Below, one piece after another: positions 6,001-51,709 of a stretch of DNA of 64,000 bases. Within the stretch, counting starts at the first letter, position 1; every line of letters starts with the position of its first letter. The notes below the pieces were generated by a model. The model was not told the origin of the DNA. It made no database searches and saw only the letters and a program-made list of their open reading frames with translations. This stretch comes from Dictyostelium discoideum (taxonomy: Eukaryota): contig CM000154.2 in assembly GCA_000004695.1 (NCBI GenBank), forward strand, positions 4,896,001 through 4,960,000, read 5' to 3'. The translations under genes and the position numbers were made by a program.

Positions 6001-6125
6001 CATATTTGTTGATGCTACAGTTCTTGCTTTACTACCTTCATCCATAAGCATATCAATTTCTGAAAAACTTTTAACTGCTAATCTAAAAAAAACAATTTAT
6101 TTAATATTCATCATCATCATCATCA

Positions 6126-6159
<34 letters not shown>

Positions 6160-6451: not shown

Positions 6452-6523
<72 letters not shown>

Positions 6524-6924
6524 TAAAAAAAATAAAAAAAATGATTAGATTTTAATTTTTTTATTATTATTTTTTTTTTTTTTTTTTTTTTAACAAACCT
6601 TTTACCAGAACCAGTTTGACCATATGCAAAGATTGAACAATTGAAACCATCCCATGCATTTTTTAAAACTTCTTTACCTAAATCATTATATACTGTTGAT
6701 TGCGATGCAAAATGTGGATCATTTGAATCATATGACCAATAACTATAATCGAATGAAAATGATTTCTCATCATCTGCTGTTGGTGCAGCCAAAGGATTGG
6801 CACGAAGTGCAGATGGTCTGGTCAAAATTGTAGATTTATTATTCATTTGAACAATTAATTCTGCATTTCTTTCCTTTTCACGTGAATTAAAGGGACGTAC
6901 CCTAACTGCTACTTGTACATTCAT
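37..6924 (-). CDS. kif1: Kinesin-3 family motor, Unc104/KIF1A orthologue, 2205 aa. It has an N-terminal motor domain, an FHA domain, long coiled coils and a C-terminal PH domain. Exons: complement(6599..6924, 6200..6445, 37..6082).
   Basis: Exon 1 begins [13 protein letters not shown] and contains the P-loop GQTGSGK, followed by a GTAAAAGgtttgt donor. Exon 2 ([12 protein letters not shown]...YVEDLSK) and exon 3 ([22 protein letters not shown]...[12 protein letters not shown]) join in frame. Total CDS is 6618 nt = 2205 codons plus stop, which matches the known DdUnc104 length. FHA region: [14 protein letters not shown]...[13 protein letters not shown] region: [22 protein letters not shown]. 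Stop at 37..39. Confidence 0.9.
6451..6535. repeat. (ATTT)n microsatellite within kif1 intron 1.
   Basis: tatttatttatttattt repeated about 20 times. Confidence 0.9.
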
Positions 6925-7912
6925 CTCTCTCTTCTCTCTCTATATATATATTATTTCTTTTTTTATTCTTTTTTATTTCCTTTTTACCTTGCTCTTCTTT
7001 TTTTTTTTTATTTTCTTTTCTTCTTGTTTTACTTTATATTATATTCTTTTTTTTTTATTTTTTTATTTTATATATATATATGTGTTTGATATATTAATAA
7101 ATAATTTATTTTCCTCTTTTAAATTTATTATTTATTTATTTATTTTTTTAAAATAAAAAAAATAAAAAATAAAAAAAGATTGATGAATAATAAATAAATT
7201 ATTATCAAATGTTCGAACAATGAGGATTGAATAACTTAAAAAAAATATAAAAAAAAAATTTCAAAAAAAAATCTTTTTTTTTTTTTTTTTTTTTTTTTTT
7301 ATTTTTTTTTTTTTAATTTTTTATTTTTTTTTTTTACTTTTCTATAAAGTAATTCAAATAATGATACAGACACACGAAAAAAAAATAGAATAAAACAAAA
7401 TAAAAAAAAAAAAAAAAATTAAAAAAATGAATAAAAAAAAAAAAAAAATTAAACAAAAGGGGGAAACTATATATATATTATTTTAATAATAATTCTTTAC
7501 TTTTTATTTTTTTTATTTTTTTTTTTTGAGATATTTTTTATGTGATGTGTGTGGGACCAGGTCAAATTAAAAAAAAAAAAATAAAAATAAAAAAAATAAA
7601 AAAAAAAATAAAAAAAAAAAAAAAAAAAATAAAAATGGTAAGATAAAAAAAAAAAAAGATAAAATCTAAAAATGAATTTAAAATCTAAAAATAAATTTAA
7701 AACAATTCTTGATTTAAAAATATAATGAACCAAGTTTTATTTTTATTTTTTTTTTTATTTTTATTTTTTTTTGTGTCTATTTTTATTTATATAAATAACC
7801 ATATTTTTTAAAATTGTTTTTTAATATCTTTTTATTTATTTATTTTTTTTTTAAAAAATTTAAATGTACACCAAAATTATTATTTATTTTTTATTTTTTA
7901 ATTTTTTTTTTT

Positions 7913-9457
7913 TTAATTTTCATCAAGTGTTAATATATATTCTAATAAAGAGATAATACCATCAATTTGCATATCTCTAAGGAAAGATTTGAAACGATCA
8001 CCATCAGTTTGGAATAAAGTTGTCATTCTTTGAATGATTACAGACTTTTGAGATGAACCTAAACTTTCATCAGTGAGTAAACTAATGAATTCATCATAGA
8101 GTGCTGTATCATTTATAACATTTGATTGATTATTTTCATCACCACTACCACCATTAACATTACTTGTATCAACATTATTATTATTATCACCATTGTTAAT
8201 TGAATGATGATGTTCATGTGAAGAATCAATTAATTCTTGTTCATGTTGATGTTGTTCATCAAATAATTCATCATCAGGTGATTGAATTATTAAATTCTCT
8301 AAAATTTCATCATCATTTGAACCTTGAACGGGTGATAATGCAGAATCTTTAAAGATTTTCAAACGATTTTCAATGAGTAGTGTTATGAAATTACAATGGG
8401 ATTGAATGTTTGTCATGTGAACTTGAAATTGTGGATTTGAAGGATTGGTATTAACTGAACGTAAGATATTTGGTGCAAAACAAACACCCAATCCAATGGG
8501 ATTCATTTTATTGATTGAAGATTTCAAAGAAACCTGCTCCAAATATTCAATGAGGTAGGATAGAACACGAACATTCTCAGTTGGTAACTTCTCTTCAACA
8601 AATACTCTAGCTTCATCGATTGTAGCGGGCACAGCTGGACTTGTGAATAGTTCCAATGGGACGAGAGGGAATTTTGACTCTCTAAGATACAATTTCAATA
8701 GACCAGCTAAATCATGAGCTGATGAATTCCCATCAACTGGTATTGCCTCTTGAACATTATTTAACATTAACCAAAGTGAACGTACAGATTCAGCATTACC
8801 ATTCACTCTAAATAATCCTTCAGTCTCTATAGCATTGGTTTTCTTTAATGCTGTAATGATCTTAAATATATTTATAAATGATAATGTTGCCGATGAAAAT
8901 GGTGCTGACAATATATGTTTCTCATAAAGTGAATCCCTACTTGGTCGTGATTTAAAGAATCTCTTTAATTTACCTGATATAATTGTTGATTTTGTAGTTT
9001 TCTTTGGTGATGGATGATGTAATATTTTATTTGGTAATGGTAATACATTGTTATTATTATTAGTTGAAGAGGATGATGATGGTGGTGATGATGATTGCGT
9101 TATTGTATTACCTGTATTTGTAGATTGTAAACTTGCACCCATTGTTGCATTTCCACTACTATAATGATTTATATTTAAATTACTATTTGATGTTGATTTA
9201 GTTAATGATCCAATACTATTTAATGATGAAGAACCTGATGAAGATCCTGATGATGATGGTGTGGTTTGATTCGCTATACCTGCTATATTACTTGCTGATG
9301 TTGATTTTGCTAAATTATTTTGTGCTGTAGTATGTTGTAATGGTGGTGATCTAGGTGGTGATTGTAATGCTGGTGGTTTATTTACATGTAAATTTGATCC
9401 ACCAACATGTTGAAATGTATTTGGTGGACTAATTGAAAGTTTACTTGGATTTGACAT
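7913..9457 (-). CDS. RhoGAP domain protein, 514 aa, single exon, Ser/Asn-rich N-terminus.
   Basis: Continuous ORF with ATG in an A-rich context. The RhoGAP core is [18 protein letters not shown]...[15 protein letters not shown]...[10 protein letters not shown]. Confidence 0.7.
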
Positions 9458-9639
9458 TCTTTTTTTTTTTTTTTTTTTTTTTAATTTTTTATTATTATAA
9501 TTATTATTGTTATTATTACAACAAATTTATTTTTAAAATAAATAAATAAATAAATAAATAAATAAAAAATAAATAAATAAATAAAAAAATAAACAGATAA
9601 ATAAATAAAACAAGAATAAATTAATTAAAACAGTATAAG

Positions 9640-9681
<42 letters not shown>

Positions 9682-10010
9682 AATAGTTTTCAATTTTTTA
9701 TTTTTTATTTTTTATTTTTTTTAATTTTTTTAATTTTTTTATTTTTTTTTTAATTTGTTTCAAATAAACCCATCCGAAAGAGAGGTTATAGAGACTAATT
9801 TTTTTTTTTTTTAATTTTATTTTATTTTATTTTATTTTTTTTTTTTTTTATTTTTTTTAAAATAAAAAACCTTTTAAAGTTATAACTTTTAATAAAATCC
9901 TAAATTGGGAATACGCAATAAAAACTTTTTTTTTTTTTTTTTTTTTTTTTTATTATAATTATTTTTTTTTTTTTATTTCTAAAAATAAATACTCTTAAGA
10001 ATCCAAAATA

Positions 10011-10185
10011 TTATTTCCAAATTTTGTTGTTGTTTTTAATAGCCTTTGTTTCTTGAAGTGGTTCATGAACTTCTACAGTTCTTAATTCAATGCCCCATTC
10101 CAAAATTTCATCTTTACCCAACTCGATATCGGATTTAAGAGTATCCCCAACCAATTCCCTATCCAAAGAAGTAAAAACTTTTTTG

Positions 10186-10228
<43 letters not shown>

Positions 10229-11772
10229 GTGAAAGTATTAATAACCTGAAGCCAAAAAAAAAAGCCATAAAAAAGCCATAAAAAAAATTAAAGAAATTAC
10301 TTACGTCTTTCTCCTTCATATTTTATCATTTTTCTATTTTCGTTTAATAATTTAATTGAATATTCTAATTTCAATTGATTTCCTAAATCAATTGGTGAAA
10401 TATAAAAATGTAATGATGGACCATCTTCGTAATCTGCCATTTCATCTATTGAAAATAAAAATTTAAATGGACCAATTTCAAAAGGTTCTGAAGTATAATT
10501 AATATTTTGAACCTTTTTATTTTTCAAATTGAGTAAACCAGCTTTTGCAATTGGATAACATTTAAAACTTGGAATTCGCCATTTATTTTTATATTCAAAA
10601 ACAGGTTGTAATTGTAGTTGTAATGGTTGATGTTGATGTTGATTTTGTTTTTGTTTTTCATCTTCTTCTTCTTTTTGTTGTTTTTTAAGTTGAATTTGGA
10701 ATATTGAATTTTCATTTGATATTGAATTTAATTTTGATAATAATAAATTGTTTTTTAAGTTAATTTCGAATAGTTGAGAGTCGTATTGCTTGCTAATGAA
10801 TTCAATGTGGTTAATGGATTTTAAATGATGGGGAAGGTGAAGACGTTTAAAACGTTGATTGCAACCACCTGCTTTGAAAGTGCATGAAATGACTCTTTGT
10901 TTGCATTGAGTGTATTCATGTTGTGGCCAATGGGATCTCTCAAATTGGTCATCACAATGCAAACAATTGATTACTTTCTTGGGACATGATAATAGGTGTG
11001 ATTGATAGTATCTCTTTTGAATATCGTCTCTTTTGCAATCATTACATTTCATTAAATTGAATTTACAACCATTCAATTCATTATTAATATCATAATGAAT
11101 CTCTTCCAAATCATTCTTTCTTTTAATTTCAATACATCCTTCATTCTTACATTTTTGAAATCTAAATTGACAAATTTCCAAATGGGACTTTAGTTCACCA
11201 ACTGTTGTAGATATTGGACAACCTCTTTCAACATCTTTTATTCTTTCTTCAATTGTTTCATCATCATAATCATCATCATCATCACCATCACCATCACCAT
11301 CACCATCTTCTCCATTTTCATCTTCATCTTGATCCTCTTCATCATCTTCTTCATTTTCATCATTTAAATTATATTGATCCTCAATAGCTATAGTTTGTAG
11401 TGCCTTTGCCTCTTGAGGATACAACTTGTCAAAATCAATTATTTTTTCATCAATTTCCTCCTCCTCCTTCTCTTTATTGAAAATGTTTTTATTTTTTTTA
11501 TTTTTATTTTTATTATTATCTTTTTTATTATTGTTATTATTATTTTGAATAATATTATTTATTGGATTTAAATGATCACCATTGTATGAATTTGGACAAC
11601 ATGCTTGGAGTTGTGAAAATTCTTTTTCAATGAAAATATTTCTTGAAAGGTCTTCAATTGATTCTATAATATTGTCACATTCAAAGCATCTGCTTTCAAA
11701 TGTATTTAACCTTTCTTGCCAGCATGACTGGCATCTCCAATGACTTTATATAGAAAATGGGAATAAAATAAA

Positions 11773-19295: not shown

Positions 19296-19457
19296 ATTAA
19301 AACCACAAACAAATTAAAATTAATAAAATTTTCTATTTTTTAGATTTATTCGAAATTAATTCCAACTTTTTTCCTATTTTTTTTTTTTTTTTTTTCTTTC
19401 TTTTTTTTTTTCCTTTCTTTTTTTTTTTTTTTTTTTTCAAAAAATTATTTTATTAAA

Positions 19458-21902
19458 ATGAAACAAACAAAAAAAGTGGTGGTTGAACCAAAACCATATA
19501 TTAAGGGTGAATTTAAAAATAGATGTTTTGCAAAAGATTTAACTATTACATTTTCAATGGGTGCATTACAAAAGATTAGAAAAATGGATTCAATTGAAAG
19601 GTATGAAACAGTTATGAAGAGTAAAGATTATCAACAATTCAATTCATTTGAATACTTTCAAATGAAAGTTAGTACTTTAATTGCAATTCCATCAAACTAT
19701 TCATTCATTTACCCAATTGGTGAGTTTAATTTCAATGAAAATAAAAATCAATATGAATTTAAACCAATTGAATTCCTAAAAGCAATTGAATTGGTTAAAA
19801 GGGATAGAAGTGGTTTAATCTCTTTTACTTTTTTAAAATCAGTGATTAATAATGGTCCTGAATTTGAATATATAAAAACAAAACCACCATCTAAAAATTA
19901 TTATCAACATGGGCCTTACTATTTAAATAAATCAAACTTGAATGAATGGGAAACAACTTGTGCAAAGTTTGATCAAGAAAATGGTTTAATCTATAAAATG
20001 ATCACAAATAAAAGGTCATCACCATTTTATTCAACTTTAAAAATATTAGTTCATAGAGAAATTAAATTTGGTTTATCAAGTAGTTCGCATACATCACACA
20101 CCTATCCCATTGATAATAATCAACCATATTACCATATTTTAGAAAAAGAAACTGGTTTAAAAACTTTATCAGATGAAAATAATCAAAATAATCAAAATAA
20201 TCAAAATGATGAAAATAATCAAAATGATCAAAATAATGAAAATGATCAAAATGATCAAAATGATGATAATAATAAAGGTTGGGTAGTTAAAAATGAATTT
20301 CCATTTGGATTTTTTTTATTACCAAATCTTAAAGAAATTTGTTTTTCAGTTTTAAAAGAAATGTTTTTAATTAGTAATAAATCAGTTATTGATAAATTAT
20401 TTTCATCAATTAAATCGATAGTACCAATTAGTTTATTACAAGAATTTGTAGTTGATTGTTTTAATGATGAGAAACCAGTTGGTAATGAAATTATTTTTAA
20501 AATTTATTCAAAATCTTTATGTGAAAATTATGATTCAATTCTTTCAAATATTAATTTCCCATTAAATGATTTATTATCAAGTTGTATTAAAAGAGATTCT
20601 TGGTTTAGATATAACTATGATATGTGTATTGCACAAGATTTATTTTATCCACCTTATAAAGAAAATTTTGCAATTAATGTTTATGAAAATTTAAATTTAT
20701 TTAAATTTAAATCGATTCCGATTGAAAATAGAAAAAATATTTTATTTGAAAAAACTGGTGGTTTGGATGATTTTAACTCTTTGATTACTGGTGATCAGTC
20801 GATTGTTGACAAGTCAATGTTTATTTCAAATTTTAATAGACTTACAAATAATAGATTTAATAAAACTTTTGATGATGGTGAGAGTGGTTTTGAAAAATTA
20901 AAGAAATTAGATTGTATTTTCATTGGTGGTATTATTACAAATTGTTTAATTCAAAATGAAAATAATGATGATGGTAAGGATGTATGTGAAGGATTCGAGA
21001 AATCAGATATTGATATTTGTTTTTTCAATACATCCAACGATTTTTACGCTCAAGTTGCTCGTTTTATTGATCAGTTCTTTAAAGGTGTTGATAGGTATGA
21101 TAGTGAGGCATCAAATAATTGTAGTATTGTTTTTCAGGGAAATCATGTTACCATTTGTCAACATTATCCAAATCGTCATATTCAATTAAATCTTTATTCA
21201 CATTTATCAATTGAGGATGTTTTAATTGGTGTCGATATTGATGCAACTTGTTTTGCATTTGATGGTATTGATATATGGTGTTTAGAAAGAGCGTTGCATT
21301 CAATCAATTATCGTATTAATATCGCATCAGAGCATTCATTTTTAATTAGAGGAGATGTTAATTATCAATATAGACTACTCAAATATTTAAAACGTGGATT
21401 TGATATTTATTATTTATCAACTCCACAAATTGATAAAATTATTAATCAAGCAAACTTTGGCAATCAATCTAAATCAAATTCACCACCAACTAAAGATTTC
21501 ACCCCATCATTAAGACATGTTGGATTTTCATTATTATTATCATTAAGAATGGATTCAACACTTTACACTCCATTTTTTAAAACCAAAGAAAGATCTGAAA
21601 CTATTTTACCCTATGGTCCAAATTTTGATGATAAATATTTTAAAAGATGGGTAGGTCATAATTTCAATAAACACTACGATGGCTATAATAGTAATGATAT
21701 TCTTCAACTACTAGAAACTCCTATTTCAGATATGGATATGGGCCATAGAGATTCAATATCTTATAATCATGAATGGATCAACTCATTAAATGATAGATCA
21801 TCTAATTACATATACAATGAAGATTATTATTATAATTTTGAAGTAGATGATGAAGAAGAAGACGGTGGTGAACCTAATTACCCCGAATATAATGATTCAT
21901 AA
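19458..21902 (+). CDS. Hypothetical 814-aa protein; the central region has a possible Pol-beta-like nucleotidyltransferase motif.
   Basis: Single uninterrupted ORF with ATG after an A-run. The segment CIFIGGIITNCLIQNENNDDGKDVCEGFEKSDIDICFF...LIGVDIDATCF resembles a G[GS]...[DE]hDh NTase signature, with a low-complexity loop inserted. No confident family assignment can be made from sequence reading alone. Confidence 0.6.
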   Translation: MKQTKKVVVEPKPYIKGEFKNRCFAKDLTITFSMGALQKIRKMDSIERYETVMKSKDYQQFNSFEYFQMKVSTLIAIPSNYSFIYPIGEFNFNENKNQYEFKPIEFLKAIELVKRDRSGLISFTFLKSVINNGPEFEYIKTKPPSKNYYQHGPYYLNKSNLNEWETTCAKFDQENGLIYKMITNKRSSPFYSTLKILVHREIKFGLSSSSHTSHTYPIDNNQPYYHILEKETGLKTLSDENNQNNQNNQNDENNQNDQNNENDQNDQNDDNNKGWVVKNEFPFGFFLLPNLKEICFSVLKEMFLISNKSVIDKLFSSIKSIVPISLLQEFVVDCFNDEKPVGNEIIFKIYSKSLCENYDSILSNINFPLNDLLSSCIKRDSWFRYNYDMCIAQDLFYPPYKENFAINVYENLNLFKFKSIPIENRKNILFEKTGGLDDFNSLITGDQSIVDKSMFISNFNRLTNNRFNKTFDDGESGFEKLKKLDCIFIGGIITNCLIQNENNDDGKDVCEGFEKSDIDICFFNTSNDFYAQVARFIDQFFKGVDRYDSEASNNCSIVFQGNHVTICQHYPNRHIQLNLYSHLSIEDVLIGVDIDATCFAFDGIDIWCLERALHSINYRINIASEHSFLIRGDVNYQYRLLKYLKRGFDIYYLSTPQIDKIINQANFGNQSKSNSPPTKDFTPSLRHVGFSLLLSLRMDSTLYTPFFKTKERSETILPYGPNFDDKYFKRWVGHNFNKHYDGYNSNDILQLLETPISDMDMGHRDSISYNHEWINSLNDRSSNYIYNEDYYYNFEVDDEEEDGGEPNYPEYNDS

Positions 21903-22029
21903 GTAAGAAATCAATAGTAATCTTTATATGTATGTGAAGTAAAAATATAAATAAAGGCATTAGGTTTTTTAATTTACTTTGTAGTTTTTTTATTTTTATT
22001 TTTATTTATATTTATATTTATTTATTGTT

Positions 22030-25000
22030 TTAATTTAATTGTTTTAATTTGCTTTGTATTTGTTCTTTAAACTTTTTGGAATTTTTATTTTTGATAAAAA
22101 TGTATACAACCGAGATAACAATAATTGCCACAAAACACACTGAACCAATTACAATTCCTGCGATTTTACTGGCTGATAATCCATTTGATTTCGAACAAAT
22201 TGAATTCTCTCCTGATGCTGATTCGCTATCTAATAAAACAAAGAAATCTGGATCAATAATTACTTTATTTTTAAAATGTGGAATTTTAATTCCAATAAAA
22301 GTTTGAGTAGAGTGAGATGTTGATTCAGCAATTGTATTTTGGAATTCATCTAACAATGTATTTTCAATACCAACAATATTACCATCTACTACAGCCCTTT
22401 TAATGAATCTACCATACATTGAATGATCTTGAACTTGAAGTTTAATGTAGTTAGAGTTGTCACCATTTGTAGTATCACCAAATTGTTTTAATGAACAAAA
22501 ATCATCACTTTCATCTGTTGATAATATCGAAGCAAACATTACCAATTCGAGATTATTTAAAGCTGAAGAGAATACATAATTTTCAATTTCAATGGTAAAT
22601 TTGACTGATGATGGATTCATTTGGAGCTCTTGACCTGCAAATGTTATATTTTTGCTTGAATTAAACCATTGAATAATTGTTGTTATATTTGTGGTTTTAA
22701 TATCGTTACCATTTTGAGAAACTATTGATGTATTGTATCTACCAGTTGTTAAATCTATATCTTCAAATACCCATTTATCAAAAGGGAATGTTTTAATAAC
22801 TTCACCTTTAAAATCTAATTCTCTAATAGAAACTAAAGTTACTAATGATTTAAATAAAAATTCTGTTGAGTTTGTTTCTTGTCCACCACCACCGCCTGTA
22901 ATAGGAATTTCAACTGTTGGTTGTGAAGTATTTGTTTGTGGTGTTGGGATAATAATAATTTTTGAAGTACAATCAACTCCGTACCAAGGAGAGTAACAAA
23001 TGCATCCAAACCCACTTTGACAATAACCTTTGTTTTTTCCTCCACATTCTGGATTTCCTAAACATTTTTGAGGTGGATTTGTTGGTAATGGTGATATAGT
23101 TGGTTGTAAAGTTGGTTGTAAAGTTGGTTCTGGTGTATATGTTGGACCAGAATAATTAAAATTATAAACTATTGGATTAATTAAAAATTCATTTGATTTA
23201 ATGTTAATTTGATTGGAATCAAGTAATAATAATTTAAAAGGAATATCGATTAATGGTACCTCTGTTAATTTAATGAAACTTGAATAGGTTTTAGTTATTG
23301 TTTTTAAATTTATGTCACTACCATTCGAAATATAAATAATCGCTGTATCAACTGTACGAAAGTTTTTACCAAAAATAAATAGAGTTGAATCTTTGTTTGT
23401 AAATTCTGAAACTGATGTTATTATTGGTATATTAAATGAAAAATCTGTAGAAACAAACCAATCTTGTTGTAATGGATTTAAATCCTTAATGTCTTTTGAA
23501 GAGAATCCACTATAGGTTCCTCTATTATTAATAAAGCCATAAACAGATACTAAGAAACCATCAGGATATCCAAAACCTACTGGTACTTCTATTGTACACG
23601 AAAAGGTTATTGTAGTTGAATTAGTAATTGTTGGTGTTGCTCGGCATTGTTCCATTGCAAGTCGTTGTGGAACTAAATAAACTATTGGATTCTGTCCTTG
23701 TTTAAAACCGCTTTCTAAATCTTGTGCTTGAAAAGTGAATGTTATTGATCTATCTAAAGAGCCTACATCCATTGAAGATCTCGAGGTTTTAAAGGAAATT
23801 AAATTTGGAGGAGAACTATCCAATTCACCAGTACAATAATAATTAATACTAAAGGGTGATGAATCATTAATGAAATGAATAAATGGATTACGAGTTGACT
23901 CAAACGATTGAGTGTTTTCATAATACTCTAAAGTGAAATATTTAACATATGTATTATTGTTACCATATGTATCGAATAAACTTGCTTGAGTTATTAAATA
24001 ATCTTGAGTGATACAATTACTACTCCCAATACCAAACTCCAATGGTATTATAATTTTGTAATCACCAATAATTTTATCACCACTTCCTTCTATTAAATTT
24101 GACATGTTTATTGTAATGTTGTAGAATGAAGAATCTAAAAGTCCTTTAACAATTAAAAAGCCATCTCTGAAACCGTTTATTTCATCTTGAATTGTAAATA
24201 ACCATCCATTATGTTGTTTTATGATTTTGGTTACAATTGGTCCATAAATATCAACCTTAATTGAAGTTGCTCTTAATTGATATTCATTGGATAAATAATT
24301 ACTATCAATTAAGTTTGTATTATCAAGTACCAATGCATAACTTATATTTCCTGGTAGTGTATTTGCAGGTACTTTAAAGTTTACTCTAAATCTATTGGTT
24401 GTTTGGTCCCATACTGCAAATTTATAATTTGGATTTAAAATAGTAAATATACTATTTTCAAATCTAATATCGTTTAAAGATTTTTCATCAGTTAAATAAA
24501 AACCAATTGACAAGTCTTTATAGTCTTCAATATTATTAAATGTAAAAAACATTATATTATCAACTGATTGGTCAGTTATATCAATGTCATTATATAAAAA
24601 TGATACCTGAACTAAATCATTTAAATAATTATAATCTATTAAAATAATATTAAAAAAATTATTAGTAATGAATTATAGTAGTTTTAAAAGTGTATTATTA
24701 ATACAATTTTCTTACTTTTTAAATTAATACTTGGATATGTAAGTTTTGAAATGTTATTACCAATCTGGTAGAGATAATCACCAAATCCATATGTAACTGG
24801 GTAATCTAGGTTGCCTTCTATTTTTATTGAATTTTCGGTGATAGCATTGCTTATTTCAACAAGCTCAAATTTTATTTCTGTAAGATACTCCCAAATACCA
24901 TCAGAAGCGGTACCAGAAACAAGCATACCATTATCATGAACAGTATTCTTTGAGTTCATAATTTTTAAATACGAAACTGAAGATAAATTTGGTGAGCCGA

Positions 25001-25873
25001 TACTTTTAATTTCAATTCTGTTTAAAAACTTTAGATTTCCGATATAACTAGATGTAAAAGATTGGATTTCAAATCTTCCAACATCGGAATTAGGTAATGT
25101 AATAAATGGTTCGAAATCTCCCCTCATTTTAGTAATACATCTAGGCATACATATAGTAAGAATATTCAAAGGTGAAATGGATATTAAATTAATTGGTAAA
25201 GAGAATCCAAATTTGACCATTTCATTATTTCCTCCAATAAAGCCAAATGGAAAATCGGTAATAGTAAATGTTTGTTTATATTCTAATTGAAATGGATTAA
25301 AATCAAATTTAAATTCTGTTCCATTATACTCAGATGTAACCATTGCCATACCAACAGTTGAATTATCTTTGATAGAAGTTAACTTTGAGTTTGGTGTTTG
25401 TAATCTTGGGCTTTCTATTTTTTTAATTTGAAATATTTATATATATATATCAATTTTAATATTAATATATTTCAATTTTTTTTTTAAATATTTTAAGATT
25501 AAAAAATTAAATCAAATTTACCTGTTATATTAACAAAAAAATTGGAATATTCTTTAAATGATGGTTGTGTTTCATTTTGTCCATACAATGAAAAGTTCAT
25601 ACCATTAGCCATAATTGGTAAACAAGTTGCAATAAATGTTAAATTATTTGGTTTACCTAAAATTGGTCTTGGTGTTGAATAATATCCTAAAGTACCCAAT
25701 CTATACACCGGATTTAGAAGATTTGATTTGATTCTAAATGATAAAAGTGAACCAAATACATTTGAATATAAAACAAAATTTCCTGAAGGTGGATAAAGTT
25801 TTAAATCATAAATTTCATTCGTTACAATATTTCCTCCTTTTAAATTAAAATTAAAAATTATTATTATTATTAT

Positions 25874-25909
<36 letters not shown>

Positions 25910-26694
25910 ACTATTTTTAAAAGGTACACTAATTATTAAGTTGTTTGAAATTGGAAATGTAAAATCAATTGACCAAATATCAAGATTTTGTGACAAATAG
26001 AAATTTTCATTATAAACTATTCTGAATAAATTTCCACCCATTTTATATACCTTTACAATTTGTGAATCATATGTAAATTCAACATTTTCTGGCAAGTTAT
26101 TAATTCTGACAACCGAAAAATATTTAAAAGTAGTACTCCATATAACATCTTGAATAATATCTACTGATAGAGTTGAAATATTTAACTCTTTTTTTTATTT
26201 ATTATTAATAGAGAAAAAAATGATTAAAAAAAAAAATGATTAAAAAAAAAAAAATGATAAAAAAAAAAAAAAAAAATTGGTAATATGTTATTAATAAAAT
26301 ATTAAATATTAAAAATAATAATAAAAAAATTATTACCTTTACAATCTAAATTTAAATCAAAATATCCTATTGATGGATCAATAACAGTACCACTATTTGC
26401 AACAAATTGGTAAAAATTGTTACCTAATTGAGATTGAATATCAACTCTAAAAAGAGTAAAAGAAGAATTTGTCCATTGTATAAAACCTGCTATTAAAAAA
26501 TCTGTATCTGCCATAGTGTTAACCGTTTGACCTTGTAAACCCTCTACTAAAAAAAATTTTATTGTATAGCAACTATTTCCATTTAAAAAAGAAGAATTTT
26601 TTGAAGGTGTGAGATCTGTAAATTTAAATTGTTGAGCATTTACATTTAATTTTATTATTATAAAAATTAATAAAAAGAATAAATTCCTTATCAT
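22030..26694 (-). CDS. Type I surface glycoprotein, about 1417 aa, 5 exons (copy A of a tandem pair). Domain order: signal peptide, IPT/TIG-like beta modules, a membrane-proximal EGF-like module, one TM helix, short basic tail. Exons: complement(26337..26694, 25912..26187, 25522..25836, 24716..25414, 22030..24635).
   Basis: N-terminus MIRNLFFLLIFIIIKLNVNAQQ reads as a signal peptide. The donors g|gtaat, a|gtaagt, g|gtaaat and a|gtaaga are all phase 1, and the exon lengths (358+276+315+699+2606) sum to 4254 = 3x1418. IPT-like segment: PIITSVSEFTNKDSTLFIFGKNFRTVDTAIIYISNGSDINLKTITKTYSSFIKLTEVP. EGF-like segment: CLGNPECGGKNKGYCQSGFGCICYSPWYGVDC. TM helix: IAGIVIGSVCFVAIIVISVVYIF, followed by KNKNSKKFKEQIQSKLKQLN*. 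The domain content resembles Dictyostelium Tgr (IPT/TIG) family surface proteins, but exact family membership is not established. Confidence 0.65.
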
Positions 26695-27511
26695 TTTTAT
26701 TTTTTTTTTTTAAGTAATGTTTTTCCAGACTAATTAAAAAAAAAAAAAAAAAAATGAAAATAAAAATAAAAATAAAACAAATAAAAAATAATAAAAATAA
26801 AAAAAAATAACAAAAAAAAAAAAAAAAAAAAAATCTTTTAAATGCCAACACCACAAAAAAAATTAGTCACATCAATACGAACACCCCAAAAAAAAAAAAA
26901 AACAATCAATTTAATCAAAAAAAAAAAGATTTTTTCAAAAAAAAATATCAAGTGAAAAGATAATTTTTTCATTTATTTTTGAACGGTTTTTTTTTTTTTT
27001 TTTTCGAAAAAGCCGATTAAAATAAATTGCAATGGAAGGGTGATGACATCATTAGCATTCGAAATACCAAACAATGAATTATTATTTTCATTTTATTTTA
27101 TTTTTTTTTTTTTTGTAAATTAGATCATTATTTGAAAATTATTATACTTTTTTTTTTTTTTTTTATTTTTGTTTTAGAAAAAAAAATTTAATAAAAAAAA
27201 AAAATGTTGTGAAAAATTAAAAAACGAATAAGATTTTTTTTTTTTTTTTTTTTTTTAAATGTAGTGTTTTAAAAAATATCTTTTAAACAGTGCATTTATA
27301 AAAATTTCGAAGCAAATTGGATTTTTTTTTTGGATGGTTATTTTTAGAATAATTCATAAATAAAAAATCATTAATAAAGATACATATTTATTTATAAGTA
27401 AGAAGTCAATATTAATCTTTATATATGTATGTAAAAATAAATAAAGACATTAGGTTTTATTTACTTTGTAGATTTTTATTTTTATTTTTATTTATATATT
27501 TATTTTTTGTT

Positions 27512-30500
27512 TTAATTTAATTGTTTTAATTTGCTTTGTATTTGTTGTTTAAACTTTTTGGATTTTTCATTTTTGATAAAAACATAAACAATAGAAATAA
27601 TAACAACTGCCACAAAACACACTGAACCAATTACAATTCCTGCAATTTTACTGGCTGATAATTCATTTGATTTTGAACAAATTGAATTCTCTCCTGATGC
27701 TGATTCGCTATCTAATAAAACAAAGAAATCTGGATCAATAATCACTTTATTTTTAAAATGTGGAATTTTAATTCCAATAAAAGTTTGAGTAGAGTGAGAT
27801 GTTGATTCAGCAATTGTATTTTGGAATTCATCTAACAATGTATTTTCAATACCAACAATATTGTCATCGACTACAGCCCTTTTAATGAATCTACCATACA
27901 TTGAATGATCTTGAACTTGAAGTTTAATGTAGTTAGAGTTGTCACCATTTGTAGTATCACCAAATTGTTTTAATGAACAAAAATCATCACTTTCATCTGT
28001 TGATAATATCGAAGCAAACATTACCAATTCTAGATTATTTAAAGCAGAGGAGAATACATAATTTTCAATTTCAATGGTAAATTTGACTGATGATGGATTC
28101 ATTTGGAGCTCTTGACCTGCAAATGTTATATTTTTGCTTGAATTAAACCATTGAATAATTGTTGTTATATTTGTGGTTTTAATGTCGTTACCATTTTGAG
28201 AAACTATTGATGTATTGTATCTACCAGTTGTTAAATCAATTTCATCAAATACCCATTTATCAAAAGGGAATGTTTTAATAACTTCACCTTTAAAACCTAA
28301 TTCTCTTATTGAAACTAAAGTTACCAATGATTTAAATAAAAATTCTGTTGAGTTTGTTTCTTGTCCACCACCACCACCTGGTATTGGAATTTCAACTGTT
28401 GGTCCTGAAGTATTTGTTTGTGGTGTTGGGATAATAATAATTTTTGAAGTACAATCAATTCCATACCAAGGAGAGTAACAAATGCATCCAAACCCACTTT
28501 GACAATAACCTTTGTTTTTTCCTCCACATTCTGGATTTCCTAAACATTTTTGAGGTGGATTTGTTGGTAATGGTGATATAGTTGGTTGTAAAGTTGGTTG
28601 TAAAGTTGGTTCTGGTGTATATGTTGGACCAGAATAATTAAAATTATAAACTATTGGATTAATTAAAAATTCATTTGATTTAATGTTAATTTGATTGGAA
28701 TCAAGTAATAATAATTTAAAAGGAATATCGATTAATGGTACCTCTGTTAATTTAATGAAACTTGAATAGGTTTTAGTTATTGTTTTTAAATTTATGTCAC
28801 TACCATTCGAAATATAAATAATCGCTGTATCAACTGTACGAAAGTTTTTACCAAAAATAAATAGAGTTGAATCTTTGTTTGTAAATTCTGAAACTGATGT
28901 TATTATTGGTATATTAAATGAAAAATCTGTAGAAACAAACCAATCTTGTTGTAATGGATTTAAATCCTTAATGTCTTTTGAAGAGAATCCACTATAGGTT
29001 CCTCTATTATTAATAAAGCCATAAACAGATATTAAGAAACCTTCAGGATATCCAAAACCTACTGGTACTTCTATTGTGCATGAAAAGGTTATAGTGGTCG
29101 TATTGGTAATTGTTGGTGTTGCTTGACATTGTTCCATTGCAAGTCGTTGTGGAACTAAATAAACTATTGGATTCTGTCCTTGTTTAAAACCGCTTTCTAA
29201 ATCTTGTGCTTGAAAAGTGAATGTTATTGATCTATCTAAAGAGCCTACATCCATTGAAGATCTCGAAGTTTTAAAGAATATTAAATTTGGAGGAGAACTA
29301 TCCAATTCGCCATTACAATAATAATTAAATATTAAGGGTGATGAATCATTAATGAAATGAATAAATGGATTACTAGTTGAATCAAAGAATTGAGAGTCCT
29401 CATAAAATTCTTGAACGAAATGTTTAACATATGTATTATTGTTACCATATGTATCGAATAAACTTGCTTGAGTTATTAAATAATCTTGAGTGATACAATT
29501 ACTAATTCCAATACCAAACTCCAATGGTATTATAATTTTGTAATCACCAATAATTTTATCACCACTTCCTTCTATTAAATTTGACATGCTTATTGTAATG
29601 TTGTAGAATGAAGAATCTAAAAGTCCTTTAACAATTAAAAAGCCATCTCTGAAACCGTTCACTTCATCTTGGATTGTATATACCCAACCATTCTGTTGTT
29701 TTATGATTTTGGTTACAATTGGTCCATAAATATCAACCTTAATTGAAGTTGCTCTTAATTGATATTCATTGGATAAATAATTACTATCAATTAAGTTTGT
29801 ATTATCAAGTACCAATGCATAACTTATATTTCCTGGTAGTGTATTTGCAGGTACTTTAAAGTTTACTCTAAATCTATTGGTTGTTTGGTCCCATACTGCA
29901 AATTTATAATTTGGATTTAAAATAGTAAATATACTATTTTCAAATCTAATATCTTTTAAAGATTTTTCATCAGTTAAATAAAAACCAATTGACAAATCTT
30001 TATAGTCTTCAATATTATTAAATGTAAAAAACATTATATTATCAACTGATTGGTCAGTGATATCAATGTCATTATATAAAAATGATACCTGAACTAAATC
30101 ATTTAAATAATTATAATCTATTAAAATAATATTAAAAAAATTATTAGAAATGAATTACAGTGGTTTTTTATGTGTAAAATTAATAGAACTTTCTTACTTT
30201 TTAAATTAATACTTGGATATGTAAGTTTTGAAAATTCATTACCAATTTGATAGACCGTGTCACCAAATTCATATGTACTTCGAGTATCTTTGGTGCCTAC
30301 AATTTTTATTGTATTTTTTATGCTAGCACTACTTAATTCAACAAAATCAAATTTTATTTCTGTAACAAACTCCCAAAAACCTTCAGAAGCGGTACCAGAA
30401 ACAAGCATACCATTATCCAAAACAATATACTTTGTTTCTTTAATTTCTAAAAATGAAACTGAAGATAAATTTGGTGAAACTGTACTTTTAATTCCAATTC

Positions 30501-31362
30501 GGTTTAAAAACTTTAGATTCCCGATATAAATTGATGTAAAATATTGGATTTCAAGTTTTCCAACATCGGTGTCGGGTAATATAATAAATGGTTCGAAATC
30601 CCCTCTCATTTTATGAGTACATCTTGGCATACATAAGTTTAAGATATTCAAAGGTGAAATTGACATTAAATCAGCTGGTAAAGAGAATCCAAATTTGACC
30701 ATTTCATTATTTCCTCCAATAAAGCCAAATGGAAAATCGGTAATAGTAAATGTTTGTTTATATTCTAATTGAAATGGATTAAAATCAAATTTAAATTCTG
30801 TTCCATTATACTCAGATGTAACCATTGCCATACCAACAGTTGAATTATCTTTGATAGAAGTTAACTTTGAGTTTGGTGTTTGTAATCTTGGGCTTTCTAT
30901 TTTTTTAATTTGAAATATTTACATATATATATATCAATTTTAATATTAATATATTTCGATTTTTTTTTTAAATATTTTAAGATTAAAAAAATTAAATCAA
31001 ATTTACCTGTTATATTAACAAAAAAATTGAAAAATTCTTTAAATGATGGTTGTGTTTCATTTTGTCCATATAATGAAAAGTCCATACCATTAGCCTTAAT
31101 TGGTAAACAGGTTGCAATAAATGTTAAATTATTTGGTTTACCTAAAATTGGTCTTGGTGTTGAATAATATCCTAAAGTACCCAACCTAAATACTGGATTT
31201 TGAAGATTTGATTTGATTCTAAACGATAAAAGTGAACTAAGTATATTTGAATATAAAACAAATTGTCCTAAAGGTGGATAAAGTTTTAAATCATAAATTT
31301 CATTCGTTACAATATTTCCTCCTTTTAAATTAAAATTAAAAATTTGTTAATAAATTATTAAT

Positions 31363-31398
<36 letters not shown>

Positions 31399-32142
31399 AC
31401 TATTTTTAAAAGGAACACTAATTTTTAAACTATTTGAAACTGAAAATGTAAAATCAATTGACCAAGTATTAAGATTTTGAAACAAATAGAAATTTTCATT
31501 ATAAACTATTCTGAATAAATTTCCACCCATTTTATATACCTTTACAATTTGTGAATCATATGTAAATTCAACATTTTCTGGCAAGTTTTTAATTTTTACA
31601 ACTGAAAAATATTTAAAAGTAGTACTCCATATAACATCTTGAATAATATCTACTGATAGAGTTGAAATATTTAACTCTTATTTTTTTTTTATTATAAAAA
31701 TATATATAAATAATAAAAAAAAAATTAGTAACATGATATTAAAAAATAAAAAATAAAAAAAATCATTACCTTTACAATCTAAATTTAAATCAAAATATCC
31801 TATTGATGGATCAATAACAGTACCACTATTTGCAACAAATTGGAAAAAACTGTTACCTCTTGGAGATTGAATATCAAATTCAAAAAGACTAAAAGAAGAA
31901 TTTGTCCATTGTATTAAACCTCCTATTAAAAAATCTACATCTCCCATAGTGTTAACCGTTTGACCTTGTAAACCCTCTACTAAAAAAAATTTAGTTGTTT
32001 TGCAAATATTTCCATCAACAACTGTAAAAGAAGAATTATTTGAAGGTGTGAGATCTGTAAATTTAAATTGTTGAGCATTCACATTTAATTTCATTATTAT
32101 TATTAATAAAATTAAAAAAAAAAAAAAAAAATTCCTTATCAT
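27512..32142 (-). CDS. Paralogue (copy B, about 1422 aa) of the preceding gene, with the identical 5-exon structure. Exons: complement(31770..32142, 31401..31676, 31007..31321, 30198..30896, 27512..30117).
   Basis: Exon lengths (373+276+315+699+2606) sum to 4269 = 3x1423, and the splice motifs match copy A. The last roughly 500 aa are about 98% identical to copy A, while exon 4 and the N-terminal third of exon 5 are only about 70-85% identical. The upstream region shares the motif aaaattagtcacat...aatcaat...aaaagattttttcaaaaaaaaatatcaa...ttttttcatttatttt with copy A. Confidence 0.65.
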
Positions 32143-32460
32143 TTTTTATTTGATTTTTTTTTTTTTTTTAGATTAATAAAAAAAAATAATAAAAAAAAAT
32201 AATCCAATTTTAGTTTTTTAGAAAAATATACCAAACATAAAAAAAAAAAAAAAATTAGTCACATAGATACATCACCCAAAAAAAAAAAAAAAATAATCAA
32301 TATCATTAAAAAAACAATTTTTGTTTTCATCACAAAAGATTTTTTTTCAAAAAAAAAAATATCAATAAATAAAAAGATATTTTTTCATTTATTTTCAAAA
32401 AAACAATTGTTTTTCATCACAAAAGATATTTTTTCATTTTTTTTTATTTTTTTTTATTTT

Positions 32461-32497
<37 letters not shown>

Positions 32498-32743
32498 AAA
32501 ACACTGATTCAAATAAATGGAAGATATTCGAAATAATATTTTTTTTTTTTTTTTTTTTTTTTTTTGATTGGCAAGTTAATCATTAAAAATTAAAATTATT
32601 TAAACTTAAATTAAGCTTAATAAAAAAAAAGAAATAAAAAAAATTTTTTTTTTTTTTTTTTTTTTTTTTCCTAAGAAAAAAAAAAAAAAAAGAAATTACA
32701 AATATTTAATTTATTATATATTATTTTTGATTTTTTAATTTTT

Positions 32744-34510
32744 TTAATTTATATAACCTTCAGTTCTTAAATGATTTAAAATTAAAAGGATTGCATCTTT
32801 TACTGAGGTATGAGTTGTATCAATTCTTAATTCTGGATTTTCTGGAGTTTCATATGGATCATCGATACCAGTGAAACCTTTGAGTTGACCACTTCTAACT
32901 TTAGCGTATAAACCTTTACGATCTCTTTTTTCACAAGTTTCAATTGGAGTTGAGATATGAATTTCAATGAAACCACCATTTGGAGTGATTAAATCACGAG
33001 CAAATTTACGAGCACCAGCATAAGGTGCGATTGGGGCACAAATTGCAATACCACCAGCTTTTGAAATTTCAGAGGCAACGAAACCAATACGTTTGATATT
33101 GAGATCACGATGTTCTTTACTGAAACCCAATTCACTTGAGAGGAATGTACGAACGACATCACCATCTAAAAGAGTTATTGAACGACTACCATCTTCAAGG
33201 AGTGCTTCATTTAATGCATTTGCGATTGTACTTTTACCACTACCACTGAAACCTGTAAAGAAAACTGTAAAACCTTGTTTTGAACGTGGTGGACATGAAT
33301 CCCTTAAAATTTTAACCACCTTTTCATAGGTGAACCAATTTGGAATTTCACCACCAGTACGAAGGAGATGACGTAATTTTGTGCCAGAGATATTTGCAGT
33401 TTCTAAACCCTCTGGAACTTCATCGACTGGATAATATTTATCGTGTGCTGGTACGTAAACCATCATTTGGAATGGAAGGATTTTAATTGATAAACGATTG
33501 GCTAATTTAAGTGCCAATTCTTGAGCTTCGTATGGTTGATAAAATAGGTTGCCTTGTTTGTCCTCACCTGGACCTGCATGATCTCTACCAACGATGAAAT
33601 GATTACAACCGAAATTCTTTCTAATAATTGCGTGCCAAACTGCCTCTCTTGGTCCACCCATTCTCATGGCCAATGGCAAGAGTGAGAGTGTTGCCAATCC
33701 CTCTGGATAGGAGTCCATGATCTCTTTATAACATTTAACACGTGTGTGGTAATCGATATCGCCTGGTTTGGTCATGCCAACTACTGGTTGAATTAAAAGG
33801 TGACAATTTGCATTCAACTCGGCTGCTCTAACTGTAAGTTCTCTGTGTGCTCTATGCATTGGATTACGAGTTTGGAAGGCGATAACGTTCTCCCAACCTT
33901 TGGTTTTAAATAATTCTCTCACTTGAATTGGTGTACGACGGAGACCGTTGTAATCGTAGTGTACTGGTAATTGGGCACCCTCAAGCTTGCCGCTTACATA
34001 GTACTCTTTGGTATTGAAAATTGTGGAAACACCTGGATGGTATGGGTCAATGGATCCCATTGTCTTTTTGGCTTCGTTCTCTTTATTTGGTGTATAATAA
34101 TTTGAAACGGTTAAAACTGCTATTAAATTTCCCTCTTCATCACGTAATGCCATTTGTTTACTATCGGTTGCTAAAACTGTATCCAAGCATTCCTTGCTTA
34201 TATCCAATACTATTGGCATTGGGAATAATAATCCCTCATCTTTATCACCATCGATTGTCATGGTTTCAACAACATTATTATAGATGGTTTCGTCCATAAA
34301 TGTACTCAATGGTGAGAAACCACCATTCATCAATAATTCTATATCACATAATTGCTTCTTTGTTAATAATAAACTTGGTAATGAAATTGATCTTTGTTTT
34401 AATTCTACTAATTCTTCTCCTTCTAAAATTAAATTTATTAATTCTCCGCCATGTGGGATTGAACCATAAAGTTTGGAATTATTTGTTGTTAAAATATCTG
34501 GTGATACCAT
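32744..34510 (-). CDS. Bifunctional sulfate adenylyltransferase (ATP sulfurylase) with a C-terminal APS kinase domain, fungal Met3-like domain order. 588 aa, single exon.
   Basis: ATP-sulfurylase motifs QTRNPMHRAHRELT and GRDHAG, and a PUA-like N-terminus. The C-terminal segment GFTVFFTGFSGSGKSTIANAL...DGDVVR...KRIGFVASEISKAGGIAICAPIAPY is APS-kinase-like with an intact P-loop. Confidence 0.85.
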   Translation of the reverse strand: MVSPDILTTNNSKLYGSIPHGGELINLILEGEELVELKQRSISLPSLLLTKKQLCDIELLMNGGFSPLSTFMDETIYNNVVETMTIDGDKDEGLLFPMPIVLDISKECLDTVLATDSKQMALRDEEGNLIAVLTVSNYYTPNKENEAKKTMGSIDPYHPGVSTIFNTKEYYVSGKLEGAQLPVHYDYNGLRRTPIQVRELFKTKGWENVIAFQTRNPMHRAHRELTVRAAELNANCHLLIQPVVGMTKPGDIDYHTRVKCYKEIMDSYPEGLATLSLLPLAMRMGGPREAVWHAIIRKNFGCNHFIVGRDHAGPGEDKQGNLFYQPYEAQELALKLANRLSIKILPFQMMVYVPAHDKYYPVDEVPEGLETANISGTKLRHLLRTGGEIPNWFTYEKVVKILRDSCPPRSKQGFTVFFTGFSGSGKSTIANALNEALLEDGSRSITLLDGDVVRTFLSSELGFSKEHRDLNIKRIGFVASEISKAGGIAICAPIAPYAGARKFARDLITPNGGFIEIHISTPIETCEKRDRKGLYAKVRSGQLKGFTGIDDPYETPENPELRIDTTHTSVKDAILLILNHLRTEGYIN

Positions 34511-34749
34511 TTTTTAAATTTCTATTTATATATAATTTTACAAAAAAAAAAAAAAAAAAAAAATATATTTAATTTTACAAAAACAAAATAAAATGTTTAA
34601 ATAATTTAATTTAAAAATTAAGAGAAAGGAAATAAAGAATTTGCTTAAAAAAAAAAAAAAAAGGAATCGTTTTGGGAGAAAAAAAAAATAAAAAAAAAAA
34701 AAATATAAAAAAAATTTAAAAAAAATAAAAAAAATTAGTTTTGAAAATA

Positions 34750-39821: not shown

Positions 39822-40260
39822 ATAAAATAAAATAAAATAAAATAAAATAAAAGAAAATAAAATAAAATGAGTAAATTTTTTTGAAAAATCTTGATTGGTT
39901 TGGTATTTTTAGCATCAAAACCAATTTCAAATAAACAATTTATTTTTTTAATTTTCAAACGATAAAAACTAAATACCAAGGAATTGCTCGTCTTTTTTTT
40001 TGAAATGGTTCACACTAAACACCAAGATATTGCTTTTTTTTTTTTTAAATTTTGGAAAGATATACACTAGATTGCTCGTCTTTTTTATTTTGAAATGATT
40101 TACACTAAATACCAAGATATTGCCCATTTTTTTTATATTTTTTTTTTATTTTATTTTATTTTATGTTATTTAAAATTAATTTTTTCACAGATAGCTCAAT
40201 AGTTTTTTTTTTTTTTTGTTTTTAAAAAAATAGTAAATAAGATATCAAAAACAAATAAAA

Positions 40261-48594
<8,334 letters not shown>

Positions 48595-51700: not shown

Positions 51701-51709
51701 ATAAAATTT

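Follow-up and report, generated by a model that had tools for sequence, protein, structure and literature searches.

A tandem pair of ComC-family surface glycoprotein genes of Dictyostelium discoideum carries the patchwork of recurrent interlocus gene conversion

Partial concerted evolution, in which some segments of duplicated genes are homogenised and others are not, is a textbook feature of the primate gamma-globins, the red/green opsins, RHD/RHCE and the KIR/LILR receptors. In Dictyostelium, comC functions in intercellular communication upstream of lagC/tgrC1. The tandem paralogues tgrB1/tgrB2 are reported to undergo interlocus gene conversion and to have mosaic sequences, and tgrB1/C1 are extreme outliers when compared with a genome mean diversity of 0.0014-0.003 (bioRxiv 10.1101/2025.10.22.684067). 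Here, we describe two neighbouring genes of strain AX4, DDB_G0291027 (gene A) and DDB_G0291045 (gene B), which are located in a stretch of 64,000 nucleotides (assembly GCA_000004695.1, contig CM000154.2, positions 4,896,001 to 4,960,000 of the forward strand). This whole stretch is called the window, and all positions refer to its first letter as position 1. An earlier inspection of the letters (sequence-only reading) had interpreted the pair as a duplicated IPT/EGF/transmembrane surface-protein gene and had compared it with the allorecognition genes of the tgr family.

As in the textbook cases, conversion at this locus falls into discrete tracts, the paralogues of one lineage are closer to each other than to their orthologues in other lineages, neutral sites are homogenised and segments that may be functionally distinct escape. 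It differs from them in its host, a dictyostelid with an extremely AT-rich, haploid genome, and in that no GC-biased signature was detectable. With the tgr family (tgrB1/tgrC1), the pair shares mosaic tandem paralogues, single-pass surface glycoproteins with Ig-like (immunoglobulin-like) beta-sandwich arrays and a copy number that varies between close species. Taken together, the data provide good support for recurrent interlocus gene conversion between old tandem paralogues as origin of the patchwork, and the best explanation for the locus as a whole is very probably that of a ComC-family pair which goes back to an old duplication, was converted repeatedly and retained blocks that escaped.

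Self-BLAST of the window, which is very AT-rich (GC 0.14-0.33), detected only one large repeat. Its two copies (21889-26979 vs 27384-32395) are in direct orientation, share 90.84% identity over 5142 aligned columns and have a period of 5495 bp. Beyond the unit, the identity of the flanks goes down to 54.8% and 68.1%. The head-to-tail duplication that had been read from the letters is therefore real, with a period of about 5.5 kb. The copies and their genes are as follows:

21889..26979, minus strand: unit copy A (downstream in gene orientation), consisting of a 141-nucleotide 3' flank, the gene and about 285 nucleotides of 5' flank
27384..32395, minus strand: unit copy B (upstream in gene orientation), the self-BLAST partner of copy A
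22030..26694, minus strand: gene A, DDB_G0291027, 1417 amino acids (aa), exons 26694-26337, 26187-25912, 25836-25522, 25414-24716 and 24635-22030 (stop included)
27512..32142, minus strand: gene B, DDB_G0291045, 1422 aa by conserved splice sites, exons 32142-31770, 31676-31401, 31321-31007, 30896-30198 and 30117-27512

These limits, with five exons each, are exactly those that had been proposed before, and model A matches DDB_G0291027 with 100% identity over its full 1417 aa. The common exon structure and splice phases were also borne out, since all four introns of both genes are of the GT..AG type and lie in phase 1. The exon lengths (A/B) are 358/373, 276, 315, 699 and 2606 nucleotides. Exon 4 has 699 nucleotides in both copies and aligns without gaps, and thus the previously suggested length difference of 221 versus 236 aa in this exon was wrong. 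Most likely, it arose from the use of a later donor site, as in the annotation of DDB_G0291045. The public AX4 model of this gene has 1435 aa, because the later donor adds 13 codons (SKKVLLILHIKNH) that extend into intron 4 (window 30158-30197). The GTAAG donor of intron 4 (30197 in B) is kept in 13 of 13 orthologous and paralogous copies from nine genomes. Judged by this conservation, the annotated 1435-aa model is probably wrong, and the conserved donor would give a protein of 1422 aa.

The nucleotide identity of the two copies varies along the gene: 91.9% in exon 1, 94.6% in exon 2, 94.3% in exon 3, 88.1% in exon 4 and 96.7% in exon 5. Exon 4 (about 77% identity at the amino acid level) can be split into a distal part of 478 nucleotides (82.6%) and a proximal part of 200 nucleotides (100%). 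Introns vary in the same way, with 99.1% identity in intron 3, 87.5% in intron 4 and 84.8% in intron 1. The longest identical run covers 568 bp (A 22982-23549), whereas no run exceeded 138 bp when the differences in the unit were shuffled 2000 times, and when exon 5 was analysed alone none of 2000 shuffles reached 568 bp. Uniform divergence was thus refuted, in line with what the sequence-only reading had noticed. Its statement that the 3' 1.5 kb is about 98% identical holds overall (97.5%), but the transmembrane helix and tail, which it had counted in, form a divergent patch. Here, positions 22066-22165 are 88% identical and the last 58 codons differ by 9 replacement and 6 silent changes. Another patch of exon 5 (23550-24023) shows 92.6% identity. 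The peptides quoted as examples of N-terminal divergence, YVKYFTLEYYENTQSFESTRNP and YVKHFVQEFYEDSQFFDSTSNP, are present, but they are located in exon 5 at about aa 790 and not at the N-terminus. For aa 916-1064, the proportion of synonymous differences (pS) is 0, compared with values of 0.14-0.35 for distal exon 4. Since the mosaic is equally strong at synonymous and intronic sites, it reflects the time since the last conversion rather than differential selection.

For comparison, the orthologous locus was taken from eight other assemblies, which yielded 13 gene copies in nine genomes including AX4. Judged by their properties, these assemblies are those published by Holland et al. 2025 (PMC12745789). 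Two tandem copies are present in four D. discoideum assemblies. These are AX4, an independent long-read assembly of a closely related lab strain (probably AX2-214; locus collinear and 99.6% identical) and the tropical D. discoideum isolates ACTFIW and ACTFIR (probably OT3A and CR116C). The cf. discoideum cryptic species ACTFIY and ACTFIZ, the two D. citrinum isolates and D. firmibasis each have one copy. Gene order at the locus does not vary (TIG gene, DNase II, Sod-like, ATP sulfurylase/APS kinase, the ComC-like gene or genes, Gad2-like, THO2). Five exons and the GT..AG introns are kept in all 13 copies, and 12 of them have an intact open reading frame (ORF). In the remaining copy, exon 2 of the D. 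citrinum isolate ACTFIU, a 1-nucleotide deletion in an AAA run (TTTC-AATACC) breaks the frame; the other D. citrinum isolate is intact, and the deletion is either a true frameshift or a Nanopore homopolymer error.

The evidence that carries the conversion reading comes from quartets of AX4_A, AX4_B, isolate_A and isolate_B. In such quartets, orthology sites (A=A', B=B') were distinguished from concerted sites (A=B, A'=B'). The genomic alignment contains 114 orthology sites, 59 concerted sites and 3 sites of the third pattern. The informative sites form 17 runs instead of the 78.8 expected (z = -10.5), and for the second isolate a z of -10.1 was obtained. Polarisation of the concerted sites by the two cryptic species gave 15 sites with the derived state in the AX4 pair and 22 with it in the tropical pair, which indicates conversion in both lineages. 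Fifteen additional concerted sites distinguish ACTFIW from ACTFIR, and conversion thus appears to have gone on after the divergence of the two tropical isolates.

Neighbor-joining (NJ) trees calculated by block switch their topology in the same way. The A and B alleles (three each) fall into separate clades in the trees for exons 1-3, for distal exon 4 and for the exon-5 patch, with 93-100% bootstrap support. For the 3' 1.5 kb of exon 5, A and B pair inside each strain (98/94/70% bootstrap). The following tracts and blocks were defined:

22082..23491, minus strand: converted tract 1 of copy A (27564-28973 in B), about 1.4 kb, with 36 consecutive concerted sites in AX4/ACTFIW and 38 in AX4/ACTFIR
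24072..24670, minus strand: converted tract 2 of copy A (29554-30152 in B), the 3' end of intron 4 and the first 560 nucleotides of exon 5, 98.0% identity
25215..25517, minus strand: converted tract 3 of copy A (30697-31002 in B), intron 3 plus the proximal 200 nucleotides of exon 4, with 10 concerted sites and one interruption
25700..26776, minus strand: unconverted block 1 of copy A (31185-32203 in B), 5' flank and exons 1-3 with introns 1-2, with 45 orthology vs 2 concerted sites
24676..25193, minus strand: unconverted block 2 of copy A (30158-30675 in B), distal exon 4 (aa about 392-550) with the beginning of intron 4, the block that diverges most (82.6%)
23550..24023, minus strand: unconverted block 3 of copy A (29032-29505 in B), the exon-5 patch (aa about 754-912), with 15-19 orthology sites
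21985..22125, minus strand: unconverted block 4 of copy A (27472-27607 in B), transmembrane helix, 20-aa tail and start of the 3' flank, with 8 orthology sites in AX4/ACTFIR

Tract 1 includes the 568-bp identical run and encodes aa about 931-1401, that is, an IPT-like sandwich, a Pro/Thr linker, the EGF-like module and the ComC_SSD domain described below. In tract 2, the ratio of concerted to orthology sites is 10/2 in AX4/ACTFIW and 6/1 in AX4/ACTFIR, and AX4_A and AX4_B form a clade with 94% support. Among the unconverted blocks, the A and B clades are supported by 99% and 100% for block 1 and by 100% each for block 2, where 50-55 orthology sites stand against 1-2 concerted sites. Block 3, which contains the end of DUF7035, most of DUF7034 and the example peptide mentioned above, gives an A clade of 93% and a B clade of 100%, and for block 4 AX4_B and FIR_B form a clade with 100% support. 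Gene conversion that homogenises the 3' part, as postulated from the letters, is thus strongly supported by the quartets, the switching trees and the derived concerted sites. The simple opposition of a homogenised 3' end and a divergent distal ectodomain was only partly correct; the 3' part is homogenised, but the pattern is patchier, with at least three tracts and with a transmembrane helix and tail that are unconverted in AX4.

There is thus good support for repeated interlocus (non-allelic) conversion in tracts of about 0.3-1.4 kb, independently in the AX4 and tropical lineages. It keeps about 2.3 kb nearly identical, namely intron 3 together with proximal exon 4, the beginning of exon 5 and the larger part of the membrane-proximal 470 aa. 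Four blocks (exons 1-3, distal exon 4, the exon-5 patch, and the transmembrane helix with the tail) have escaped and kept their A-type or B-type identity. The divergence of the escaped blocks dates back at least to the sister-species splits, and the patchwork mainly records the time since the last conversion rather than diversifying selection. The same blocks escape in two lineages. Either the divergence already reached may hinder heteroduplex formation, or selection may retain N-terminal domains that are specific to each paralogue.

The age of the duplication can be estimated from the single-copy species. In ACTFIY, a relic of the upstream copy is located between the ATP sulfurylase gene and the intact gene, followed by a homologue of the A-B spacer. 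The relic consists of 280 bp of promoter and exon-1 start, which are 80-81% identical to B copies and 72-78% identical to A copies, and of two exon-5 pieces with 93% identity to B and 90-92% to A. It follows that the same duplication predates the split of ACTFIY and that the B copy was later destroyed there. The dS (synonymous divergence) between A and B in exon 4 is 0.19-0.31. On the same-gene scale, where dS from AX4 is 0.15 to ACTFIY, 0.24 to ACTFIZ and 0.49 to D. citrinum, this value places the origin inside the discoideum clade, after the citrinum split. We infer that a 5.5-kb head-to-tail duplication took place in an ancestor of the discoideum clade, after the split of D. citrinum and before at least one of the cryptic sister species split off. 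In the ACTFIY locus (4708-10353), about 5.4 kb of unrelated DNA with four called genes, one of them deoxynucleoside-kinase-like, lie between the ATP sulfurylase gene and the relic of about 480 bp. The public protein model of ACTFIY (1443 aa) is wrong, because it joins the intact gene with an exon of the relic. A similar annotation artefact is found in ACTFIR (3295-9115), where the APS-kinase part of the ATP sulfurylase and copy B were fused into a 1581-aa 'partial' protein.

Four observations weigh against this interpretation. First, when distal exon 4 of ACTFIZ was polarised with D. citrinum, 5 A-derived and 6 B-derived states were counted. With such mixed counts, this gene may either date from before the duplication or be a B/A hybrid that was left when unequal exchange collapsed the pair. 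Second, converted substitutions do not show a GC bias; the ratio of AT-to-GC (W>S) to GC-to-AT (S>W) changes is 20:7 at concerted sites and 77:33 among singletons (Fisher p = 0.81, small numbers). Third, the genomes used for comparison were assembled from Nanopore data and then polished by short reads, whose cross-mapping between paralogues can mimic homogenisation. Against such a polishing artefact, the 15 AX4-derived concerted sites come from the separate AX4 reference and recur in an independent assembly, while the tropical concerted pattern is common to two independently assembled isolates. The fourth point concerns function, since searches of the literature and its supplements gave no expression, proteome or mutant record for DDB_G0291027, DDB_G0291045, Q54F76 or Q54F75. 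A literature search on comC with lagC also gave no expression or mutant record for the gene pair.

Both proteins are type I membrane surface glycoproteins of the ComC family. In protein A, we found the Pfam domains DUF7035 (aa 678-818, 89 bits), DUF7034 (aa 826-948, 113 bits) and the Cys-rich EGF-like DUF7949 (aa 1074-1109, 53 bits), each with a cut-off of 27 bits, and the ComC supersandwich domain ComC_SSD (PF22933, aa 1135-1350, E = 1.7e-25, 90.4 bits, cut-off 24). The protein of gene B and all orthologues and paralogues have the same precomputed Pfam domain set. There is a single hydrophobic segment (aa 1369-1400) with a transmembrane helix at aa about 1372-1396, followed by a basic cytoplasmic tail of 20 residues. 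The EGF-like module and the transmembrane helix of the sequence-only reading are thus both present, with DUF7949 above its gathering score. A hydrophobic N-terminal leader can be read from the sequence, but it passes the hydropathy cut-off only in copy B. The two proteins carry 23-25 N-glycosylation sequons, 25 of them in protein A.

With the ComC family, the pair has in common this domain set, which exceeds the Pfam gathering thresholds in protein A, and the signal-peptide-plus-transmembrane topology of DDB_G0291027/DDB_G0291045. ComC itself is listed as 'has EGF domains, S+T' (PMC4931340). The pair differs in being only distantly related to the other members found (at most 40% identity, the comC gene itself being outside the comparison). 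Family matches occur across dictyostelids (Dictyostelium spp., Heterostelium, Acytostelium). Their architecture suggests that the proteins, like ComC, may have a role in adhesion or signalling on the cell surface.

The IPT domains that had been assigned from the letters were not recovered. The TIG/IPT model of Pfam did not match whole protein A at E<=1, and the isolated segment aa 950-1046 reached only 13.5 bits, below the cut-off of 20.9. As positive control, the same library detected TIG in a neighbouring gene (ORF 45805-48591) at 4e-30. Residues 1-674 of protein A match no Pfam family. In an AlphaFold2 model of aa 660-1115 (pLDDT 76, the program's confidence score), aa 660-1045 are predicted as three sandwiches of the Ig/FN3 (fibronectin type III) class, and Foldseek matched them to generic surface-receptor arrays, namely LILRB3/PirB, fibronectin, contactins, KIR3DL1 and plexin IPT domains (E 1e-8 to 1e-5). 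Judged by these models, the label 'IPT' would be valid only at the level of the general fold class (Ig/FN3/IPT-like). For the N-terminal 556 aa, a 12-sequence alignment gave a model with a mean pLDDT of 50.8 (70-83 in the exon 1/2 sandwiches, about 30 in exon 4), which did not match any PDB entry by Foldseek at E<=1e-3, and a sequence search against solved structures gave no match at E<=1. In this model, exons 1 and 2 each appear to encode one predicted beta-sandwich module with moderate confidence, and exon 3 is less clear. Introns that are all in phase 1, together with one module per exon, form the layout expected for exon-shuffled modular ectodomains, and such a clean arrangement is unusual in Dictyostelium.

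Selection was analysed as omega by the Nei-Gojobori method and as pN/pS pooled over four independent pairs. The A/B omega of the whole gene is 0.46-0.51. Pooled pN/pS is significantly below 1 in exon 2 (0.26), exon 3 (0.40), distal exon 4 (0.54, P = 1e-4), the exon-5 patch (0.32) and the bulk of exon 5 (0.21, P = 1e-44), and these data show that purifying selection maintains the two paralogues, both of which are probably functional genes. In its mature part (aa about 23-119), exon 1 cannot be distinguished from neutrality (pooled pN/pS 0.93-1.04); single comparisons reach 1.6-3.7 (Fisher p >= 0.19). Along the gene, dN/dS was not significantly above 1 in any region tested. Polymorphism was compared between AX4 and the tropical isolates, which represent three distinct D. 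discoideum haplotypes. For the ComC-like genes, a dS of 0.08-0.12 was obtained, and values of 0.16-0.20 were reached only in exon 4 of B. The flanking genes gave a dS of 0.05-0.10 and an omega of 0.04-0.38. The 7% amino acid difference between 'alleles' is thus probably explained mostly by general isolate divergence and relaxed constraint and not by hyperpolymorphism of the tgr type. The direct neighbours of the pair are:

32747..34513, minus strand: bifunctional ATP sulfurylase/APS kinase, upstream neighbour, syntenic in all 8 other genomes, used as neutral baseline
19344..21899, plus strand: Gad2-family protein (PF26128:Gad2), downstream neighbour, convergent with gene A, dS 0.08, omega 0.37

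Among the alternative explanations, diversifying or balancing selection on the distal ectodomain survives best. It says that the pair functions in tgr-like allorecognition or kin recognition and that conversion merely maintains a constant stalk. The near-neutral exon 1 domain with its high single values would fit, as would the blocks that remain unconverted in both lineages, the dS in exon 4 of B, which is about twice that of the flanks, the predicted Ig-like sandwich ectodomain, as in recognition receptors, and a copy number that varies among sister species. Against it, dN/dS does not rise significantly above 1 anywhere, distal exon 4 has a deficit of replacements, the divergent blocks are just as divergent at synonymous sites, and isolate divergence stays within the range of the flanking genes. 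The claim that the distal ectodomain is diversifying was therefore not upheld (dN/dS below 1 in exons 2-5, about 1 and non-significant in exon 1). The tgr analogy fared no better. Unlike tgr genes, the pair lacks a Pfam TIG/IPT match and has no similarity to the true TIG gene 8 kb away, and it has neither an excess of replacements nor, among the three haplotypes compared, a large or extreme excess of polymorphism over its flanks. Its members are head-to-tail paralogues, both on the minus strand, and not a head-to-head ligand/receptor pair like the divergently transcribed tgrB1/tgrC1, and the cytoplasmic tail has just 20 aa. Finally, tgrBC is a hypervariable hotspot (PMC12745789), whereas the ComC-like locus is syntenic and stable. 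Nothing we found marks the pair as self-recognition genes, the allorecognition reading is not supported, and we consider this form of selection an unlikely source of the pattern.

A related scenario, which we regard as speculative and improbable, assigns two binding specificities to the unconverted blocks (the exon 1-3 sandwiches, distal exon 4 and the DUF7035/7034 patch). On a common stalk that is homogenised, these specificities might have been kept distinct by selection from a time before the species of the discoideum clade separated. The membrane-distal exon-1 domain (omega about 1) would then consist of a conserved core and a positively selected surface, and the pair would be a second, non-tgr module for cell-cell recognition or adhesion in Dictyostelium development, encoded by paralogues and possibly feeding the ComC-TgrC1 communication pathway.

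Homogenisation might also have resulted from rounds of unequal crossing-over, or two divergent alleles might have been captured by the duplication, so that non-crossover conversion would not be needed. The single gene of ACTFIZ, with its B-like 5' part and an A-like or ancestral exon-5 patch, has the structure that a B/A exchange would leave. Moreover, NJ trees of distal exon 4 place the A type with one single-copy species and the B type with another (the intact ACTFIY gene with A at 98%, the ACTFIZ gene with B at 92%), which also speaks for this explanation. However, unequal crossing-over would homogenise one whole side of the breakpoint and alter the copy number, while at this locus short tracts alternate within one gene and exactly two copies are present in 4 of 4 D. 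discoideum assemblies. These two properties favour non-crossover conversion, and allele capture leaves the lineage-specific concerted sites unexplained. Both variants are therefore very unlikely. Two further candidates were rejected. A third paralogue can hardly have donated the divergent blocks, since no other paralogue found is more than 40% identical, and separate duplications in the individual lineages are at odds with the 96-136 orthology sites.

The mosaic could in principle be explained without any conversion, by uneven constraint or mutation rate after a single duplication, and it is true that the best-conserved part, the EGF-like module and ComC_SSD, is also under the strongest purifying selection (pN/pS 0.21). 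Such a process cannot yield 50-60 sites at which the two paralogues of one lineage have a derived base that both paralogues of the other lineage lack. It would also leave unexplained the stretch of 150 codons without a synonymous difference, the 99% identical intron and the switching of tree topologies at 94-100% bootstrap. Since introns and synonymous sites follow the same blocks, uneven constraint is ruled out as cause, and we give this explanation hardly any credit. An assembly artefact (uncollapsed or duplicated reads), for which no supporting point was found, has a negligible probability, because the copies are 9% apart with indels in introns and flanks, the flanks outside the unit differ, and the same two genes occur in the same order in three assemblies other than that of the AX4 window, four in all.

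Recurrent gene conversion between the paralogues makes this locus a clean and well-dated case of partial concerted evolution in a social amoeba, and with the new long-read Dictyostelium genomes its tracts can be followed at the level of single bases. When orthology or selection is analysed in ComC-family genes and other tandem surface-protein genes of Dictyostelium, the data need to be partitioned by conversion tract, since an unpartitioned gene-wide tree or dN/dS would mislead, and short-read variant calls at the ComC-like locus are suspect. A corrected AX4 gene model is proposed for DDB_G0291045. The pair does not add a new allorecognition system, because the tgr analogy fails on domain content and selection and, as far as the three haplotypes show, on polymorphism.

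The neighbouring TIG gene mentioned above is a multi-exon IPT/TIG-repeat gene (window 40237-48591, plus strand), about 8 kb from copy B, in which TIG is detected at 4e-30 in three stretches of ORF 45805-48591. It encodes 2450-2470 aa and holds the same position in five loci (L003, L004, L007, L008 and AX4 as read from the window). BLASTP gave no homology between gene A and this gene (best E = 0.16). Two short direct repeats elsewhere in the window are unrelated to the gene pair (61978-62134 vs 62983-63142, 84% over 161 columns; 39939-40053 vs 40037-40143, 75% over 117 columns). A run of 100 N at 50790-50889 marks an assembly gap, and a tRNA-Lys(CTT) gene adjoins it at 51709-51783 (minus strand). 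Near this tRNA gene, a 105-nucleotide direct repeat (51830-51934 / 52488-52596) is 93% identical with its copies 660 bp apart, and it may be the remnant of a tRNA-targeted retroelement.

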